The notes: a model not told the origin generated them from the sequence alone. A stretch of DNA of 64,000 bases from Candidatus Nanoarchaeia archaeon (GCA_041653395.1 JBAZFK010000002.1:33215-97214); one strand, 5' to 3'; shown: positions 11,422 to 57,751, numbered from the stretch's first letter. A program made the numbers and translations.

Positions 11422-11574
11422 TTAAGGCTTAAATACTCCGCAATGACATTTTTTATTAAAAACGAACTCATAGCAAGGGCATTTAGTGTTTAATTTGCAT
11501 AAACAATTTCCATCATTGTCAAAAACATCTTTTAACAGCTTGAAATTAATCTTAAAACCTTCATACTCTTCCAT
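11422..11574 (-). CDS. small Cys-rich protein (three CxC pairs), putative metal-binding
   Basis: 50-aa ORF not in the track. Start overlaps the stop of the upstream methyltransferase gene (TAATG). CLC..CPC..CHC. Confidence 0.3.
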   Translation of the reverse strand: MEEYEGFKINFKLLKDVFDNDGNCLCKLNTKCPCYEFVFNKKCHCGVFKP

Positions 11575-12317
11575 TAATCAGTCACCTCTATTTTCCTAAA
11601 GCACATAATGAATCCAGTATGGCCAAGCATGTCAAACTTTGGATGGCACACCAAATCATTAACATCCCACTCCCTTAATATTAGCTCAAAAACATGGTCT
11701 AATTTAAATTTTTTTGTTGAGAACTCTTTTTGGCTAAGAGTCAATTGAGTTGTATTAGGCACATAAACAGTCAATCTTGAGCCGTTCTTTAACAAGCTAC
11801 TAATTTTGTCAGAGTAATCCCAAGGGTTAGGCAAGTCAATATTTATAGCATCAAATAACTTCCTTGAAGAATACTCCTTTAACTCTTTGTTAATGACTTC
11901 AATGTTTTCAAAACCGAACAAACTAGCATTATTTTTTATTATATTGCAAAACTTTTCATTCTTTTCAACGCTAACAATCCTGCCTTTTGCTCCAACGATG
12001 TTGGCAAAAAAGCAGCTAATAGAGCCGCTGCCTCCTCCACAGTCAAGAACCCTGAAACCTTGCATTAAACCTAGCTGCGATGCAATGAATCCTGCATCTT
12101 TTAAAGTGATTATTTGAGGGCCTCTTTTAATGCTGAACAATAAATCCTTAAAATCAGGTTTTTTAATCAAAAAACTTTTGCCTTTATGAGTCCTAATTAA
12201 ACCTTCATTAATGGAATTATATTCCTCCTTTTTTATCAATCCATAATTAATGTTTAAATCCTGATCAATCTTATCAGAATAGATTTTCTTGTACTCATCA
12301 TTCAATAAAAGTTTCAT
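11574..12317 (-). CDS. class I SAM-dependent methyltransferase, TrmI (tRNA m1A) family-like
   Basis: GFRVLDCGGGSGSIS motif I. Size and layout resemble TrmI/Gcd14. Confidence 0.55.
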   Translation of the reverse strand: MKLLLNDEYKKIYSDKIDQDLNINYGLIKKEEYNSINEGLIRTHKGKSFLIKKPDFKDLLFSIKRGPQIITLKDAGFIASQLGLMQGFRVLDCGGGSGSISCFFANIVGAKGRIVSVEKNEKFCNIIKNNASLFGFENIEVINKELKEYSSRKLFDAINIDLPNPWDYSDKISSLLKNGSRLTVYVPNTTQLTLSQKEFSTKKFKLDHVFELILREWDVNDLVCHPKFDMLGHTGFIMCFRKIEVTD

Positions 12318-32174: not shown

Positions 32175-32321
32175 GAGTCCGTGGCTCAGCTTGGATAGAG
32201 CGACTGCCTCCTAAAAAATTGTGATGATGAGAAGGTCAACTGAAAATTATGTGATGAGACTGACCTACCCTGAGTTTTTGGAGATAGCAGTAGGTCGGGG
32301 GTTCAAATCCCCTCGGGCTCG
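32175..32321 (+). tRNA. tRNA-Arg (anticodon CCT) with a ~72-nt intron at the canonical 37/38 position (exon 1 about 32175-32213, exon 2 about 32286-32321)
   Basis: acceptor gagtccg/cgggctc, D-arm gctc/gagc, anticodon stem actgc...gcagt split by the intron, loop cuCCUaa, T-arm ggggg ttcaaat cccct. Confidence 0.8.
32221..32273 (+). ncRNA. box C/D sRNA embedded in the tRNA-Arg(CCT) intron
   Basis: C gtgatga (32221-27), 12-nt guide, D' ctga (32240-43), 7-nt spacer, C' gtgatga (32251-57), 12-nt guide, D ctga (32270-73). Confidence 0.6.
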
Positions 32322-32344: not shown

Positions 32345-32400
32345 TTTCCCCCAGGGCTTTGCCTTGCAAAGGGCTGGTTCTAAATCCCCTCGGGCTCGCT
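32345..32400 (+). other. tRNA-trailer element A: conserved hairpin with GG/GG internal loop plus a degenerate copy of the tRNA 3' T-arm/acceptor strand
   Basis: tttcccc CAGggctttgc ctt gcaaagggCTGg ttctaaatcccctcgggctcgct. One of three copies in the window. Confidence 0.6.
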
Positions 32401-32591
32401 TATTATTAAATTAATTCATTAACATAAGTTGTCAATATTTGAGTTGTCTTGAAGGATTTTCCAAAGTACTGCTCGATATTAAAAGCTGCATATTTTTGCA
32501 TAATTTATTTATAATGATTTATTTTTAAAAAACTATATGACATCTTTTGAGTAGTGAAATATTTAAATTGCAGCCAATTAATTATTAAACA

Positions 32592-33812: not shown

Positions 33813-33886
33813 GGGCTTATAGTATAACTTGGATAGTACAGTGGCCTTCGGAGCCGAAAATCAGGGTTCAAATCCCTGTAAGCCCT
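33813..33886 (+). tRNA. tRNA-Arg (anticodon TCG)
   Basis: acceptor gggctta/taagccc, anticodon arm gtggc cTTCGga gccga (one mismatch), T-arm caggg ttcaaat ccctg. Confidence 0.75.
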
Positions 33887-33907: not shown

Positions 33908-33961
33908 TTTCCCCTGGGGCTTTGCTTACAGCAAAGGGCCAGTTCTAAATCCCTGTAAGCC
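33908..33961 (+). other. tRNA-trailer element B (same family as 32345..32400)
   Basis: tttcccc TGGggctttgc ttaca gcaaagggCCAg ttctaaatccctgtaagcc. The outer stem covaries with elements A and C. Confidence 0.6.
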
Positions 33962-34022
33962 TTCAGACTCCAAGATTTTTTAGAAAAATTATTTAAATAA
34001 AAAGATTGAATAGATTACTATA

Positions 34023-34496
34023 ATGGGCAAAAAAAATGATGAATGCAAGGATTGCATTGAAAACATGAAAAAGTTTGAAGAGCTGAAAAAGGATTACGTT
34101 TTGCTTAATAATCAATTAAGGCTGCTTCAGGCAGATTTTGACAACTACAAAAAAAGGGTTATTAAAGAAAAAATTGACTTGTCTGATTTGTCAAAAACAG
34201 AATTAATACTTGATTTATTGCCTGATTTGGAGGCTTTCAAAAAAGCCAGCGAGTTAAGCAAGGAAGAGGGTTTTAAATTATTATATAAAAATTTCATGAA
34301 AGTGCTGGCAAAAGCAGGGCTAAAAGAGATTAAATGCGTTGGCGAAAAATTTGACATTAATTTGCATGAGGCAATGCTTTCTGTTAGGGATGAAACCAAA
34401 GAGGATGGAATAATAATTGATGAAATAGAAAAAGGCTACACTTTCAATGATAAATTAATCAAGCCAAGCAAAGTGATTGTGAATAAGAAACAATAA
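34023..34496 (+). CDS. grpE: nucleotide exchange factor GrpE
   Basis: LRLLQADFDNYKKR, LLPDLEAF, FD...HEAM, C-terminal beta domain. Confidence 0.85.
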   Translation: MGKKNDECKDCIENMKKFEELKKDYVLLNNQLRLLQADFDNYKKRVIKEKIDLSDLSKTELILDLLPDLEAFKKASELSKEEGFKLLYKNFMKVLAKAGLKEIKCVGEKFDINLHEAMLSVRDETKEDGIIIDEIEKGYTFNDKLIKPSKVIVNKKQ

Positions 34497-40425: not shown

Positions 40426-40499
40426 GCCCCTGTAGTATAGCTTGGATAGAACAAGAGATTGCGGATCTTTAGACCCGGGTTCAAATCCCGGCAGGGGCA
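40426..40499 (+). tRNA. tRNA-Arg (anticodon GCG)
   Basis: acceptor gcccctg/caggggc, anticodon arm agaga uuGCGga ucuuu (one G-U), T-arm ccggg ttcaaat cccgg. Confidence 0.7.
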
Positions 40500-40550
40500 T
40501 TGGAAGAAAGGTGTAACACCCTAGTCTTTGCTTTATAAATAACTTTGGAG
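40487..40550 (+). repeat. att-like direct repeat copy 1: tRNA-Arg(GCG) 3' end plus 51 nt of trailer
   Basis: 64 nt nearly identical to 43029..43092 (1 mismatch). The first 14 nt are also at 49753..49766. Confidence 0.6.
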
Positions 40551-40600
40551 ATAAATTAATTTAAATTATAAATATATTGTAACTAAAGAAGTATTAATTA

Positions 40601-40681
40601 AATACTAATATCTACTAAAATGTACTAAATTAGTAGATACTTTTATAAATACTAATTTGCATTAAATTAGTAGATAACTAT
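40601..40681 (+). promoter_or_regulatory. Fic promoter/operator: perfect TATA box tttataaata flanked by palindromes (t)cTACTAAaTTAGTAga
   Basis: Palindrome copies at about 40621-40639 and 40661-40679. Related copy downstream of the gene at 42020-42044. Confidence 0.45.
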
Positions 40682-41990: not shown

Positions 41991-42148
41991 TTTATAAGCC
42001 TCATTCAAATACTAATATTTACTAATATCTACTAAATTAGTATTTAAGCATCATTTCTCTTTTCATGTGCCCTAAGGCTTTGAAAAGCAGTTTTTCTTTA
42101 TGGTTTATCTTTGTAGCAATTATGAAAGACTCTCGGGAACTAGCATCT

Positions 42149-42880: not shown

Positions 42881-43010
42881 TTAAAATAAGAATAAATCGG
42901 TATTTAAATATTTATTTAATATTGCTTTAGGGAGTAATAATAATTATTTAAATAAGGAGTTATAAATAATAAAATTGTTTTTATTTATATTTAATAAAAA
43001 ATAGGGGCAG

Positions 43011-43092
43011 TTAACCTTTTCTTTGTCGCCCGGCAGGGGCATTGGAAGAAAGGTGTAACGCCCTAGTCTTTGCTTTATAAATAACTTTGGAG
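43011..43092 (+). repeat. att-like direct repeat copy 2, with element-side arm ttaaccttttct
   Basis: cccggcaggggcattggaagaaaggtgtaacGccctagtctttgctttataaataactttggag. Arm motif shared with copy 3. Confidence 0.6.
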
Positions 43093-43470
43093 GTATTTAA
43101 ATTTATGAAAGACGCATGGGAATTGCACCATTACTATGAAGACTTAGAAAGAAAAGTAAAAAGCAGTTATTATTCAAAATATTATTTAACAATGTTTGGA
43201 GTAGTAAACGAATTCATTTTTTTATTAAGTAAATTTGTTGCACTTATTAATAAAGAAAATTTAAAGGGCTGGTTTAGTTCTGTTAAAAAATGCTCATCAA
43301 TGAAAAAAACAATAAAAGAGTTTTTACCTTTAACTGAATTAATATTAAATAGTAGAACTCCTGAAATTATGTTTGATTCATGCGAAAAATTATGGAAAAA
43401 CTGCAATGAATTAGCTAATAATAAACAAGTAGAAATAAAAAATGTAAATAATTTAAAAGAAATAATTTAA
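43087..43470 (+). CDS. hypothetical protein
   Basis: 127-aa ORF starting inside att copy 2. Confidence 0.35.
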   Translation: MEVFKFMKDAWELHHYYEDLERKVKSSYYSKYYLTMFGVVNEFIFLLSKFVALINKENLKGWFSSVKKCSSMKKTIKEFLPLTELILNSRTPEIMFDSCEKLWKNCNELANNKQVEIKNVNNLKEII

Positions 43471-49586: not shown

Positions 49587-49734
49587 TCTTTAAACTATTA
49601 ATAGTTACTATAAAATTTTTTCTTTTTAACAAAAAATAAGTATTCTATTAATAGAAAATTCGGGAAAAGTTTATATAAAATCTCTGCCTCACTTAATCTT
49701 TGTAAATAAAAAAACGAGCAAAAATTAAGGGTGA

Positions 49735-49766
49735 TTGACCTTTTCTCAGACTCCCGGCAGGGGCAT
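49735..49766 (+). repeat. att-like repeat copy 3: element-side arm plus 14-nt tRNA-Arg(GCG) 3' core
   Basis: ttgaccttttctcagactcccggcaggggcat vs copy 2 ttaaccttttctttgtcgcccggcaggggcat. Confidence 0.55.
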
Positions 49767-56960: not shown

Positions 56961-57064
56961 TAAATTAATAAAGGAAGTTTATTTATAAAGAGAATTGGAT
57001 AAAACTTCCCCTAATGCTCTATTAAAAATAAATATTTATATCTTATTAATCAAAATTAAGTATA

Positions 57065-57472
57065 TTAGTATCCTGTTTGTATATAAATTAATTCACCGCA
57101 AACACCACAAAAATGATATGTTCCTTTATAATCATCTGTAACTTTACTCATGTTAACAAGAGATTCAGTGTGCCCTTTTATGATACCGCAATTACTACAT
57201 TCATAAATATCCCATCGAAAATGTTTAAAATCCTGGATTCCATTATTATCTATAGTATAATAAATAAAACGATAAGTGCCAATATCTAAACAATCTTTTT
57301 TTAAGAATCCAATACCATTATATTCCTTTTTTATTAAATCGTCAAGTGATTTAAAAATAGTGCAGTTATTCCTGCTACATTCGAGCTTGTTTTTAACATT
57401 AATAATAACTATTTTAACTTCATTATCAATATGATCAAAAACATTCATCAGATTGTTGAATGTATTAATCAT
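57065..57472 (-). CDS. zinc-ribbon hypothetical protein
   Basis: CSNC ... CGVC pairs. Confidence 0.4.
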   Translation of the reverse strand: MINTFNNLMNVFDHIDNEVKIVIINVKNKLECSRNNCTIFKSLDDLIKKEYNGIGFLKKDCLDIGTYRFIYYTIDNNGIQDFKHFRWDIYECSNCGIIKGHTESLVNMSKVTDDYKGTYHFCGVCGELIYIQTGY

Positions 57473-57528
57473 TTAAATAGATTAACAAAAATAAATTTTC
57501 CCCAATCATTTAATAAAAAAATTGATTT

Positions 57529-57574
57529 GAGTCTGCCCGGATGAGCCCTTTGCTTCGCAAAGCCCTCGGGGAAA
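57529..57574 (-). other. tRNA-trailer element C (same family as 32345 and 33908), downstream of tRNA-Pro on the minus strand
   Basis: tRNA-sense: tttcccc GAGggctttgc gaa gcaaagggCTC atccgggcagactc. Outer stem gag/ctc covaries. Confidence 0.6.
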
Positions 57575-57590
57575 CTCAATTAAATTTATT

Positions 57591-57664
57591 TGAGTCTGCC
57601 CGGATTTGAACCGGGGCCACAAGGTCCCAAACCTCGAATCCTAACCAAGCTAGACTACAGACCC
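57591..57664 (-). tRNA. tRNA-Pro (anticodon TGG)
   Basis: Reverse complement gives acceptor gggtctg/cagactc, anticodon arm cgagg uuUGGga ccuug, T-arm ccggt ttcaaat ccggg. Confidence 0.8.
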
Positions 57665-57751
57665 AAATAATATTTTATATCAATTTTAGTGCTTTTAAAT
57701 ATTACTTTTTTATGATAATAAAAAAGATTAAAAAACAAGCAGTTTATATAA

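Follow-up and report, generated by a model that had tools for sequence, protein, structure and literature searches.

Why should the 3' end of a tRNA gene stand in the chromosome a second time, a short distance beyond the intact gene and directly behind a small hairpin? The question is posed by tRNA-Pro(TGG) on the minus strand of the window, by which we mean the whole 64,000-nucleotide stretch of a Candidatus Nanoarchaeia genome analysed here. We call the segment behind this gene copy C, its siblings in the window being copies A and B; related loci and contigs are given by their L numbers. The features at the tRNA-Pro locus, with the basis for each in brackets, are the following.

57590-57665, minus strand: tRNA-Pro(TGG), the host gene, intact and without an encoded CCA (ARAGORN; Rfam RF00005, 57.3 bits)
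57588-57605, minus strand: DR1, first copy of the direct repeat, comprising tRNA positions ~59-73 (ATCC GGG CAGACTC A) and trailer AAT (exact 18-nt match)
57575-57587, minus strand: AT-rich left arm of the copy C insert, AAATTTAATTGAG (reading of the sequence)
57568-57574, minus strand: TTTCCCC box of copy C, abutting the 5' side of the hairpin (alignment of 14 copies)
57543-57567, minus strand: copy C hairpin, with GAG/CTC outer stem, GG/GG 2x2 internal loop, CTTTGC/GCAAAG inner stem and GAA loop (motif count, folds, covariation)
57525-57542, minus strand: DR2, second copy of the direct repeat, a partial tRNA-Pro 3' end (exact 18-nt match)

The ends of the tRNA gene given above are those of ARAGORN, and Rfam places them at 57591-57664. 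Read in the sense of the tRNA, the locus runs from tRNA-Pro ...GGTTCAAATCCGGGCAGACTCA through AATAAATTTAATTGAG, TTTCCCC and the hairpin to ATCCGGGCAGACTCAAAT and CAATTTTTTT...; with longer flanks shown, the end of tRNA-Pro is CCCCGGTTCAAATCCGGGCAGACTCA, and CAATTTTTTTATT lies downstream of ATCCGGGCAGACTCAAAT. The insert between the two repeats is 45 nt long (57543-57587), in which no ORF fits and there is no integrase gene. The 18-nt repeat itself, ATTTGAGTCTGCCCGGAT, is found at two places in the window and no others, 57525-57542 and 57588-57605 (2 nt higher than the positions 57523-57540 and 57586-57603 that a first-pass annotation had assigned to it), and 100 shuffles yielded a chance expectation of none, even with 2 mismatches allowed. 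That annotation had taken the tail of copy C for a copy of the 3' strand of its own tRNA, and the match is indeed exact over 18 nt and reaches past the acceptor into the T-loop and the trailer. It takes in T-loop A59 and T60, the 3' strand of the T-stem, the 3' strand of the acceptor, the discriminator and the trailer, that is, the 15 last bases of the tRNA and 3 trailer bases, and so exceeds the acceptor strand alone. A T7 run follows DR2, which is similar to the native post-tRNA trailer in L129. The arm of copy C with the AAT that precedes it (AATAAATTTAATTGAG) is in turn similar to AATAAATTAAATTAG, the left arm of the copies behind tRNA-Gln in L016 and L128.

Three copies in the window

The core of the hairpin, GGCTTTGC-N3-7-GCAAAGGG, is found three times in the 64 kb against an expectation of 0.00, at 32355-32373 (plus strand), 33918-33938 (plus strand) and 57546-57564 (minus strand). 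The first two of these belong to the siblings of copy C.

32345-32405, plus strand: copy A, downstream of the intron-bearing tRNA-Arg(CCT) at 32175-32321 (motif, flank alignment)
33908-33975, plus strand: copy B, downstream of tRNA-Arg(TCG) at 33813-33886 (motif, flank alignment)

Copy A is made up of TTTCCCC, CCAG/GG/CTTTGC-CTT-GCAAAG/GG/CTGG and TTCT, after which the tRNA is repeated from T-loop position 57 through to +7. Copy B is made up of TTTCCCC, CTGG/GG/CTTTGCT-TAC-AGCAAAG/GG/CCAG and TTCT, followed by an imperfect repeat of the tRNA 3' part, and the start of grpE lies downstream of it at 34023. A covariance model built on 14 copies (the other 11 are described below) gives the three copies of the window scores of 60-71 bits and matches nothing else there. 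This bears out the earlier proposal that copy C is the third member of a single family; the accompanying description, with a GG/GG loop and inner stem the same as in the siblings, was exact apart from the repeat coordinates. Five tRNA genes are present in the window, four of them found by ARAGORN and the fifth, tRNA-Arg(CCT) with its 72-74-nt intron, by Rfam only. Three of the five (Arg(CCT), Arg(TCG) and Pro(TGG)) carry the element, which in these three copies lies 27-34 nt past the tRNA 3' end and always has the same orientation with respect to the tRNA; no element lies behind the window's Arg(TCT) or Arg(GCG).

Anatomy of the unit and covariation of its hairpin

In tRNA sense a unit consists of the tRNA with some of its trailer (DR1), an AT-rich arm of about 3-25 nt that frequently ends in ...AAATTAG or ...TTGAG, TTTCCCC, an outer stem strand C-NN-G, GG, CTTTGC..., a loop of 3-7 nt, GCAAAG, GG, C-N'N'-G, in most copies TTCT with 0-1 extra base, and finally DR2. 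The element is about 45-60 nt in size and non-coding, and its hosts, the Nanoarchaeia, are DPANN archaea. The TTTCCCC box is present in 11 of the 14 aligned copies, the variants being TTTCCCT (L091), ATTCCCC (L079) and TTTCCGC (L142). Copy C belongs to a subfamily with L120 and L129/L123, on tRNA-Pro and tRNA-Val, which have ATCCGGGCA in common; in this subfamily GAG/CTC is followed directly by ATCC....

The variable pairs of the outer stem are complementary in 14 of 14 copies and occur in four combinations (CA/TG, TG/CA, GA/TC and CT/AG), which upholds the suggestion that the outer stem covaries and that GAG/CUC is one of its versions. The alignment columns concerned, 20/48 and 21/47, contain the pair types CG/GC/UA and AU/GC/UA; none of 500 column shuffles reaches the observed covariation score, which collapses when the register is slid. 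Apart from GCG in place of GGG in L142, neither the inner stem nor the GG/GG loop varies, and this invariance is in part a matter of ascertainment, since 12 of the 14 copies, copy C included, were found with the exact-arm pattern or match it. Both RNA and DNA folding return the described hairpin, with an inner stem of 6-7 bp, as the minimum-energy fold of all three window copies, and the energies of the core hairpins are unremarkable against shuffled sequences (z from -1.9 to +0.3 for the three copies). Since the fold energies are ordinary, support for the structure comes from covariation and not from thermodynamics.

Several other readings of the unit were considered and set aside. A stable RNA fold of the whole element is suggested by copy C (z=-3.3), where it arises through an incidental GAGTTT/AGACTC pairing with tRNA-Pro sequence; this extra pairing is not conserved, and A and B fold no better than shuffles. 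TTTCCCC...GGGGAAAA could be taken for terminal inverted repeats in copy C only, the match being absent at A and B, and the 14-copy alignment contains no terminal inverted repeats, its left end (AT-rich, then TTTCCCC) and its right end (GGGC-NN-G(TTCT)) being non-complementary. Read antisense (...GGGGAAAC), the unit might be taken for a CRISPR repeat; it has no Rfam CRISPR-DR match at E<=10, and what would be the 'spacer' is in each case the 3' end of the adjacent tRNA itself. Nor is the element obviously a promoter or leader of the downstream gene: the orientation of that gene differs from locus to locus, and a consistently spaced TATA box is missing from the AT-rich arm.

Runs of T separate the tRNA from the hairpin in a number of copies: T7 in L126, T8 in B and L129, and T9 in L128. 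A run of T7-T9 would act as an archaeal terminator, and for this reason co-transcription of tRNA and hairpin is doubtful in several copies.

Copies behind other tRNA genes

A loose pattern run against species-representative genomes gave 119 matches, mostly chance bacterial terminator-like hairpins; the true copies among them are L016, L031 and L091, from two Candidatus Nanoarchaeia MAGs, and L079, from a MAG labelled only 'archaeon'. A stricter pattern matched nine metagenome contigs, all of them true copies, and a divergent copy behind tRNA-Arg(TCG) in L142/L143 was located via synteny and not by pattern. In all, 11 further distinct copies were recovered from other Nanoarchaeia MAGs and metagenome contigs, which brings the total to 14. 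Their host tRNAs have nine identities, namely Arg(CCT), Arg(TCG), Pro(TGG), Lys(CTT), Asn(GTT), Val(GAC), Ala(TGC), Ser(CGA, with an intron) and Gln(TTG), and the family is therefore limited neither to tRNA-Arg nor to one strand, as the first-pass annotation had concluded from the window.

Wherever sequence is available, each hairpin found lies at most about 100 nt from its tRNA, and a search of 366 kb of related DNA with the covariance model detected no copy standing on its own. The L079 copy, which has no tRNA in its vicinity, is in frame within a pilin-like ORF of 188 aa; an imperfect 14-nt repeat, GGCTCAnGCnGAAG, flanks it, and its junction shows GGCTCA homology. Units can also be multiplied or broken: the sequences of L016 and L121 open within a tandem array that comprises two or more units, tandem units carry identical 'spacers', and L091 has one full unit and a second that breaks off in the hairpin loop. 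Carriage varies within a genome as well, the JAQVLH01 MAG having the element behind tRNA-Lys (L031) and none behind tRNA-Pro (L135).

Three patterns run against the IMG/VR viral contigs found no full element, and the half-pattern matches there are attributable to chance; phage and plasmid collections likewise contained no match to the element. In Rfam, a gathering-threshold scan of the window and a scan of the element at E<=10 returned only tRNAs and noise. Full-text literature searches gave no description of the element, only background on tRNA fragments and integration.

Gain and loss among relatives

Orthologues of the tRNA-Pro locus in eight other populations were located via homologues of the adjacent GINS gene (78-99% identity). 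Only the window and a 96-99% identical group (L129, L130, L131 = L123) have the element. It is absent at seven orthologous loci, L132 (92%), L135 (89%), L133/L134 (87%), L137 (86%) and L138-L140 (80%), and at such element-free loci a T-run and then the next gene come directly after the tRNA. Since these seven loci, at 80-92% GINS identity, are without the element, copy C is a recent gain. An association between the element and the cargo found behind tRNA-Pro was also considered and rejected, as ParE/GrpB cargo occurs in L132, which lacks the element, and different cargo accompanies the element in the window.

The region with three tRNA-Arg genes was reached in four other genomes via GrpE homologues. 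Copies A and B are absent from L141 (the closest sampled relative, dnaK 89% identical in nucleotides), L144 and L145, in the last of which the empty site is visible, and L142 (dnaK 85%) has its own divergent copy behind tRNA-Arg(TCG). The window lineage has thus gained three elements, of three outer-stem subfamilies, that are absent from its nearest sampled relative, and each of these subfamilies is also found in other genomes. The two lineages with a copy behind tRNA-Arg(TCG), those of the window and L142, are not each other's closest relatives; these copies represent either two gains at one site or an old element with losses, and the latter would fit a maintained function.

These observations indicate that copy C very probably belongs to a repeat family targeted to tRNA genes and was inserted recently. 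The element had been named earlier as a tRNA-trailer element, with the implication of an RNA. The element and its sequence are real, and the evidence points to an inserted segment of DNA that is gained and lost rather than to a conserved part of the tRNA transcript.

The host duplication and its junctions

Local alignment of the flanks gives repeat lengths of ~18-24 nt for copy C, 33 nt for A (with one inserted T) and 27 nt for B, and elsewhere of 45-47 nt (L031), 34 nt (L120), 30 nt (L122 and L129), 19 nt (L126), 42 nt (L128) and at least 47 nt (L091). Overall the lengths are variable, at about 18-47 nt, with the reservation that repeat ends are hard to place in AT-rich trailers and that decayed duplications of a fixed length could lie behind them. 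The start of the repeat is at T-loop position 57 (53 if GTTC is counted) in copies of the TTCT type and at position 59 in the CTC type (copy C, L120 and L129), and it lies deeper in the T-arm in L091 (in the T-stem) and L126. The repeat ends 3-25 nt past the tRNA, and many of these ends fall within the first T-run or close to it. In every case DR2 matches the copy's own tRNA, non-conserved trailer bases included; thus the DR2 of L142 carries the T-stem CCCGG of its own genome, where the window has CCCTG.

The junctions are not clean. After TTC at the T-loop junction there is an extra T (A, B, L122 and L124), TG (L031) or TT (L142), and the T-loop in the copy exceeds the genuine one by 1-2 nt (TTCTAAAT versus TTCAAAT). 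One extra C is present at the junction in L128 and one C is lost in B, the junction of L091 has an overlap of CTG, and that of L126 contains the filler CCCAC. Comparison of L129 with the empty sites L132 and L135 shows that ~80 nt of the target beside DR2 is missing, which has removed the N-terminus of an antitoxin; in its place stands a 47-aa chimeric ORF, which crosses the hairpin and continues as the C-terminal half of the antitoxin, the partner of ParE. The tRNA gene itself stays intact, and insertion is therefore tolerated.

Splicing, host benefit, integrase or transposase?

If the DNA from DR1 to DR2 were removed, the tRNA would be restored unchanged, and so the segment between the repeats might be sought as a non-canonical T-loop intron (DR2 being the real 3' exon), or DR2 might be the 3' piece of a split tRNA; the same organism does have a genuine BHB intron, in tRNA-Arg(CCT). 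We consider such a splicing origin extremely improbable, as a BHB scan that recovers this true 72-nt intron finds no motif whose excision would equal the repeat period (77, 77 and 63 nt), tRNA-Pro is complete without DR2, and relatives do without the segment. A split or permuted tRNA 3' half was rejected as a candidate in its own right, the tRNA-Pro gene being complete and relatives having the tRNA without the fragment. The element could on the other hand benefit its host, either as an RNA, with the hairpin and the tRNA 3' fragment acting in tRNA maturation or as a decoy for factors that bind tRNA, or as a DNA signal such as a decoy att site that would shield the genuine tRNA from integrating elements, or an insulator or terminator behind strongly transcribed tRNA genes. 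Its patchy occurrence among close relatives and at three of five window tRNAs makes this unlikely, and so do the T7-T9 run that often stands between tRNA and hairpin and renders co-transcription doubtful, the lack of a consistent promoter-like box upstream, the varying orientation of the downstream gene between loci, the absence of an Rfam family and the whole-element folds of A and B, which are no better than those of shuffles. What a benefit would explain is a hairpin with compensatory changes and an invariant GG/GG loop, a DR2 that tracks the sequence of its own tRNA and a tRNA-Arg(TCG) copy in two separated lineages; tRNA genes here also clearly serve as integration sites.

The last point leads to integrases, for integrated archaeal elements are classically recognised by partial duplications of tRNA 3' ends on either side of an insert (PMC9897764, PMC3218864). 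Copy C would on this account be a miniature integrative element, or the attR-side remnant of a larger one, with its crossover in the T-loop and its repeats as attL and attR. Behind tRNA-Arg(GCG) this genome carries cargo islands of kb size; the tRNA 3' fragments at their boundaries likewise begin at the T-loop/T-stem border and have a 33-nt conserved end in common. The empty site of L145 and the status of the tRNA-Pro 3' flank as a cargo hot spot in relatives also fit. However, the insert and one repeat together make only 63-82 bp, too small for a double-stranded circle, and there is no integrase; the junctions vary (57, 59, T-arm) and have extra bases and indels, unlike those of a conservative recombinase; with the longer copied T-loop the overlap regions would not match; the repeats run into host-specific trailer; no hairpin was found at the far end of a large island; and ParE cargo is found both with the element (L129) and without it (L132). 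We therefore doubt an integrase origin. A hairpin-recognising DNA transposase acting in trans (HUH/IS200-IS605/RAYT-like or other), with a preference for the T-loop and with the element as its REP-, PATE- or MITE-like partner, would account for the short, conserved and imperfect hairpin with its asymmetric internal loop and conserved 5' box, the strict orientation, the several subfamilies within one genome, the insertion polymorphism and the in-frame copy in an ORF (L079), which we liken to the Rickettsia palindromic elements, for which in-frame copies inside ORFs have been reported. Such an enzyme would have to act on a single hairpin without terminal inverted repeats and leave variable duplications of ~18-47 nt, whereas target sequence is not duplicated on IS200/IS605-type insertion, and the duplications left by cut-and-paste transposases are short and of fixed length. 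No transposase is found in the ten Pfam-scanned ORFs of the window or in the Pfam annotations of related loci, and we judge this origin, too, to be improbable.

Proposed insertion by copy-choice

A polymerase-made insertion fits the data better than the action of a recombinase or a transposase, because the duplication has a fixed start and a variable end, the junctions contain extra bases and microhomologies, a deletion is adjacent to one of them, and tandem and partial units occur. In our best reading the element is selfish and apparently mobile. Copy C, we suggest tentatively, may be an insertion of a non-autonomous mini-element that spreads through copy-choice by a polymerase or through target-primed synthesis, with homology to the T-loop as the anchor, a mode of origin that is quite possible though short of probable. 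A DNA strand running through the tRNA gene into its trailer would switch to an existing copy of the element, either the DNA or its transcript, and would copy the arm, TTTCCCC and the hairpin. It would then re-enter the recipient tRNA at the T-loop, the tail of the element (G-GTTC-T..., or ...CTCA-TCC in the copy C subfamily) providing the short homology, and the 3' part of the tRNA would be copied for a second time. GGTTCRAATCC is a near-universal tRNA stretch, the most conserved of any tRNA gene.

The covarying hairpin might serve in this scheme as a structure for stalling or switching, or as a handle for a putative polymerase. A passively copied sequence needs neither a covarying hairpin nor an invariant GG/GG loop, an observation that speaks against copy-choice; these two features speak for a function or for a protein that recognises them. 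In the 64 kb of genome examined we identified no partner enzyme, be it a polymerase, a reverse transcriptase or a nuclease; ten uncharacterised ORFs of the window (226-562 aa) have no Pfam match to an integrase, a transposase or a reverse transcriptase, and the Pfam annotations of related loci include no transposase. No donor-recipient pair or intermediate was observed among the copies.

The template might also be RNA. On a retro-element reading, which we think unlikely, the second tRNA copy would be a cDNA of the mature or precursor tRNA: synthesis would be primed at a nick in the tRNA trailer, would run back along the tRNA transcript, would halt at modified nucleotides of the T-loop and would then jump onto the hairpin RNA. 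Archaeal tRNAs usually carry Cm56 and m1A58, both of which block reverse transcription. The two main classes of junction lie directly 3' of tRNA positions 56 and 58, and the window encodes a GCD14/TrmI-type m1A58 methyltransferase (11574-12317). Reverse transcriptases of the DGR type have been reported in DPANN archaea and Nanoarchaeota (PMC5006420, PMC8632793). The junction positions, the methyltransferase and these reverse transcriptases are circumstantial evidence, and as such fit an RNA route.

Comparison with known systems

The element shares features with each of the systems to which we compared it, yet fails at least one defining feature of each. Like the attL/attR sites of integrative elements, it places a second tRNA 3' part, in sense orientation, beyond an intact tRNA, so that foreign DNA is enclosed and the boundary falls in the T-loop (PMC9897764), and a classical large version of this arrangement lies behind tRNA-Arg(GCG) in the same genome. 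Unlike them, it has an insert of 45-60 nt without an integrase, junctions that gain and lose bases, and repeats that enter the trailer and vary in length.

In being tiny, non-coding and multi-copy, with a conserved stem-loop, subfamilies, presence/absence polymorphism and an in-frame copy (L079), the element is like MITEs, REPs and Rickettsia palindromic elements. It differs from these in its lack of terminal inverted repeats, its one asymmetric hairpin, its strict tRNA 3' target and orientation, and its long and variable duplications. As expected of a MITE, there are multiple copies (14 distinct ones) and insertion polymorphism, with empty orthologous sites; the target duplication, at ~18-47 nt and variable, is not the short, fixed one of a MITE. 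Of the traits of an IS200/IS605-derived PATE or REP/RAYT system, a hairpin is present; the target duplication does not fit, and no cognate HUH transposase was found among the ten window ORFs scanned.

Target-primed reverse transcription by SINEs and LINEs, and templated insertions at breaks, are eukaryotic paradigms for variable duplication, ragged junctions, untemplated bases and microhomologies. The element is like them in these respects, with one precise and one ragged junction and an adjacent deletion, and also in being a short, structured, non-coding unit that would rely on an enzyme supplied in trans. It is unlike a SINE in that it has no A-rich tail, is 5-10 times smaller, and has no reverse transcriptase identified with it. 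To our knowledge, target-primed or templated insertion of the SINE/LINE type has not been described in archaea.

Finally, the attC sites of integrons are also imperfect hairpins of two stems with an unpaired central spacer and a variable loop, with the recombination point at the 3' foot by GTT.... The stems of the element, at 4 and 6 bp versus 7-8 bp, are shorter, its foot GTTCTAA (with C at position 4) misfits GTTRRRY, no IntI gene was seen in the scanned ORFs, there is no cassette ORF, and target duplication is not a feature of integrons.

Implications

Archaeal tRNA genes are known as landing sites of large integrating elements. A non-coding hairpin unit of ~50 nt that lands again and again behind many different tRNA genes, reconstitutes the tRNA 3' end through a long duplication of variable length and turns over between ~90% identical genomes would rank among the smallest target-specific mobile sequences known, and would indicate a copy-choice or target-primed mode of insertion that we did not find described for archaea in the literature searched. 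If the retro-element reading were true, there would be a SINE-like system of tRNA-targeted retroposons in DPANN archaea, together with a genomic record of tRNA modification. The partial tRNA copies risk being mis-annotated as tRNA fragments or pseudogenes, and arrays of the element break assemblies, L016 and L121 both starting inside one. Neighbouring genes can be remodelled, as by the chimeric ORF that replaces the antitoxin N-terminus in L129 and the in-frame copy in the pilin-like ORF of L079. The elements also provide fine-scale strain markers for the uncultivated Nanoarchaeia.

Cargo genes behind tRNA-Pro

The interval from tRNA-Pro to a conserved 227-aa gene is a hot spot for cargo, both in the window and at orthologous loci of other Nanoarchaeia genomes and metagenomes.

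57014-57508 (window; orthologous in L129, L132, L133, L135, L137 and L138): cargo hot spot

The window carries here a 135-aa ORF with a CxxC pair; L129, L130 and L132 carry ParE, an antitoxin and GrpB, and L135 retains GrpB and the antitoxin reading frame. The cargo is a 1038-aa BNR-repeat protein in L133, ParE/VapB with an S41 peptidase in L137, and a 294-aa ORF in L138. Copy C, the hairpin element behind the window's tRNA-Pro(TGG), is followed 19 nt past DR2, its partial tRNA copy, by an inverse box.

57499-57506 (window): GGGGAAAA

This is the TTTTCCCC/TTTCCCC box in inverse-complement form; since no box of this type follows the window's other two hairpin elements (copies A and B, behind tRNA-Arg(CCT) and tRNA-Arg(TCG)), its presence beyond copy C is probably due to chance.

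Hairpin elements in reading frames and in tandem

Two hairpin elements overlap ORFs, and two tRNA genes are followed by tandem units.

L129 9661-9804 (the same as L127 1108-1251), minus strand: 47-aa ORF crossing a hairpin element
L079 5946-6003, minus strand: in-frame hairpin element
L016 1-125 and L121 1-125: tandem array behind tRNA-Gln
L091 7252-7386: tandem units behind tRNA-Asn

The 47-aa ORF starts in the left arm of the element, crosses its TTTCCCC box, hairpin and partial tRNA copy in turn, and extends into what is left of a ParE-paired antitoxin, its C-terminal half; the antitoxin is intact in L132 (40 aa). L079, from an unclassified archaeal MAG (34% GC across the 8-kb locus), has its element in frame close to the N-terminus of a pilin-like ORF of 188 aa; a 14-nt imperfect repeat flanks this copy, and no tRNA lies close to it. 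The tRNA-Gln array comprises at least two units of 82 nt each, both contigs start inside it, and tRNA-Asn is followed by one and a half 70-nt units, the second of which stops in the hairpin loop.

The tRNA-Arg(CCT) intron and a tRNA methyltransferase gene

32175-32321 (window), plus strand: intron-containing tRNA-Arg(CCT) (Rfam match, BHB motif)
11574-12317 (window), minus strand: ORF matching GCD14 (Pfam, E=5e-16)

The tRNA-Arg(CCT) gene, which ARAGORN did not detect when run without its intron option, is interrupted at the canonical position by an intron of 72-74 nt, with the BHB motif CTCC/TAA...GGAG/ATA. Judged from its two GTGATGA...CTGA box pairs, the intron is a C/D-box sRNA-like insert; its top Rfam match is sR3 (E=6e-4, under the family threshold), and relatives L141-L146 keep it at 71-74 nt. 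GCD14 is the family to which the catalytic subunit of tRNA m1A58 methyltransferase belongs, and the window's ORF bears only on a speculative reading of the hairpin-element junctions as reverse-transcription stops.

Islands behind tRNA-Arg(GCG)

40487-40563 and 43029-43105 (window): 77-nt repeat pair, 94% identical
42996-43042 and 49720-49766 (window): repeat pair with a ~33-nt common end, at tRNA-Arg(GCG) fragments
40608-40676 and 42015-42046 (window): 32-nt palindromic motif (..TCTACTAA..TTAGTAGA..), three copies

The 77-nt repeat consists of the last 13 nt of tRNA-Arg(GCG) and ~52-64 nt of trailer, and its second copy lies 2.5 kb downstream. Between the copies are a putative Fic-motif ORF, read from a HPFYDGNGRTARAL stretch, and one other ORF; in the relative L145, tRNA-Arg(GCG) has the same trailer and next gene, and the insert is absent. 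The palindromes, located at the start of and within the island, upstream of the Fic-motif ORF, may be operator sites. The 13-nt tRNA end is found again at ~49753, and both tRNA fragments are preceded by the ~33-nt end (..GTTRACCTTTTCT..). These segments look like cassette-like islands that share the T-arm boundary of the hairpin element.
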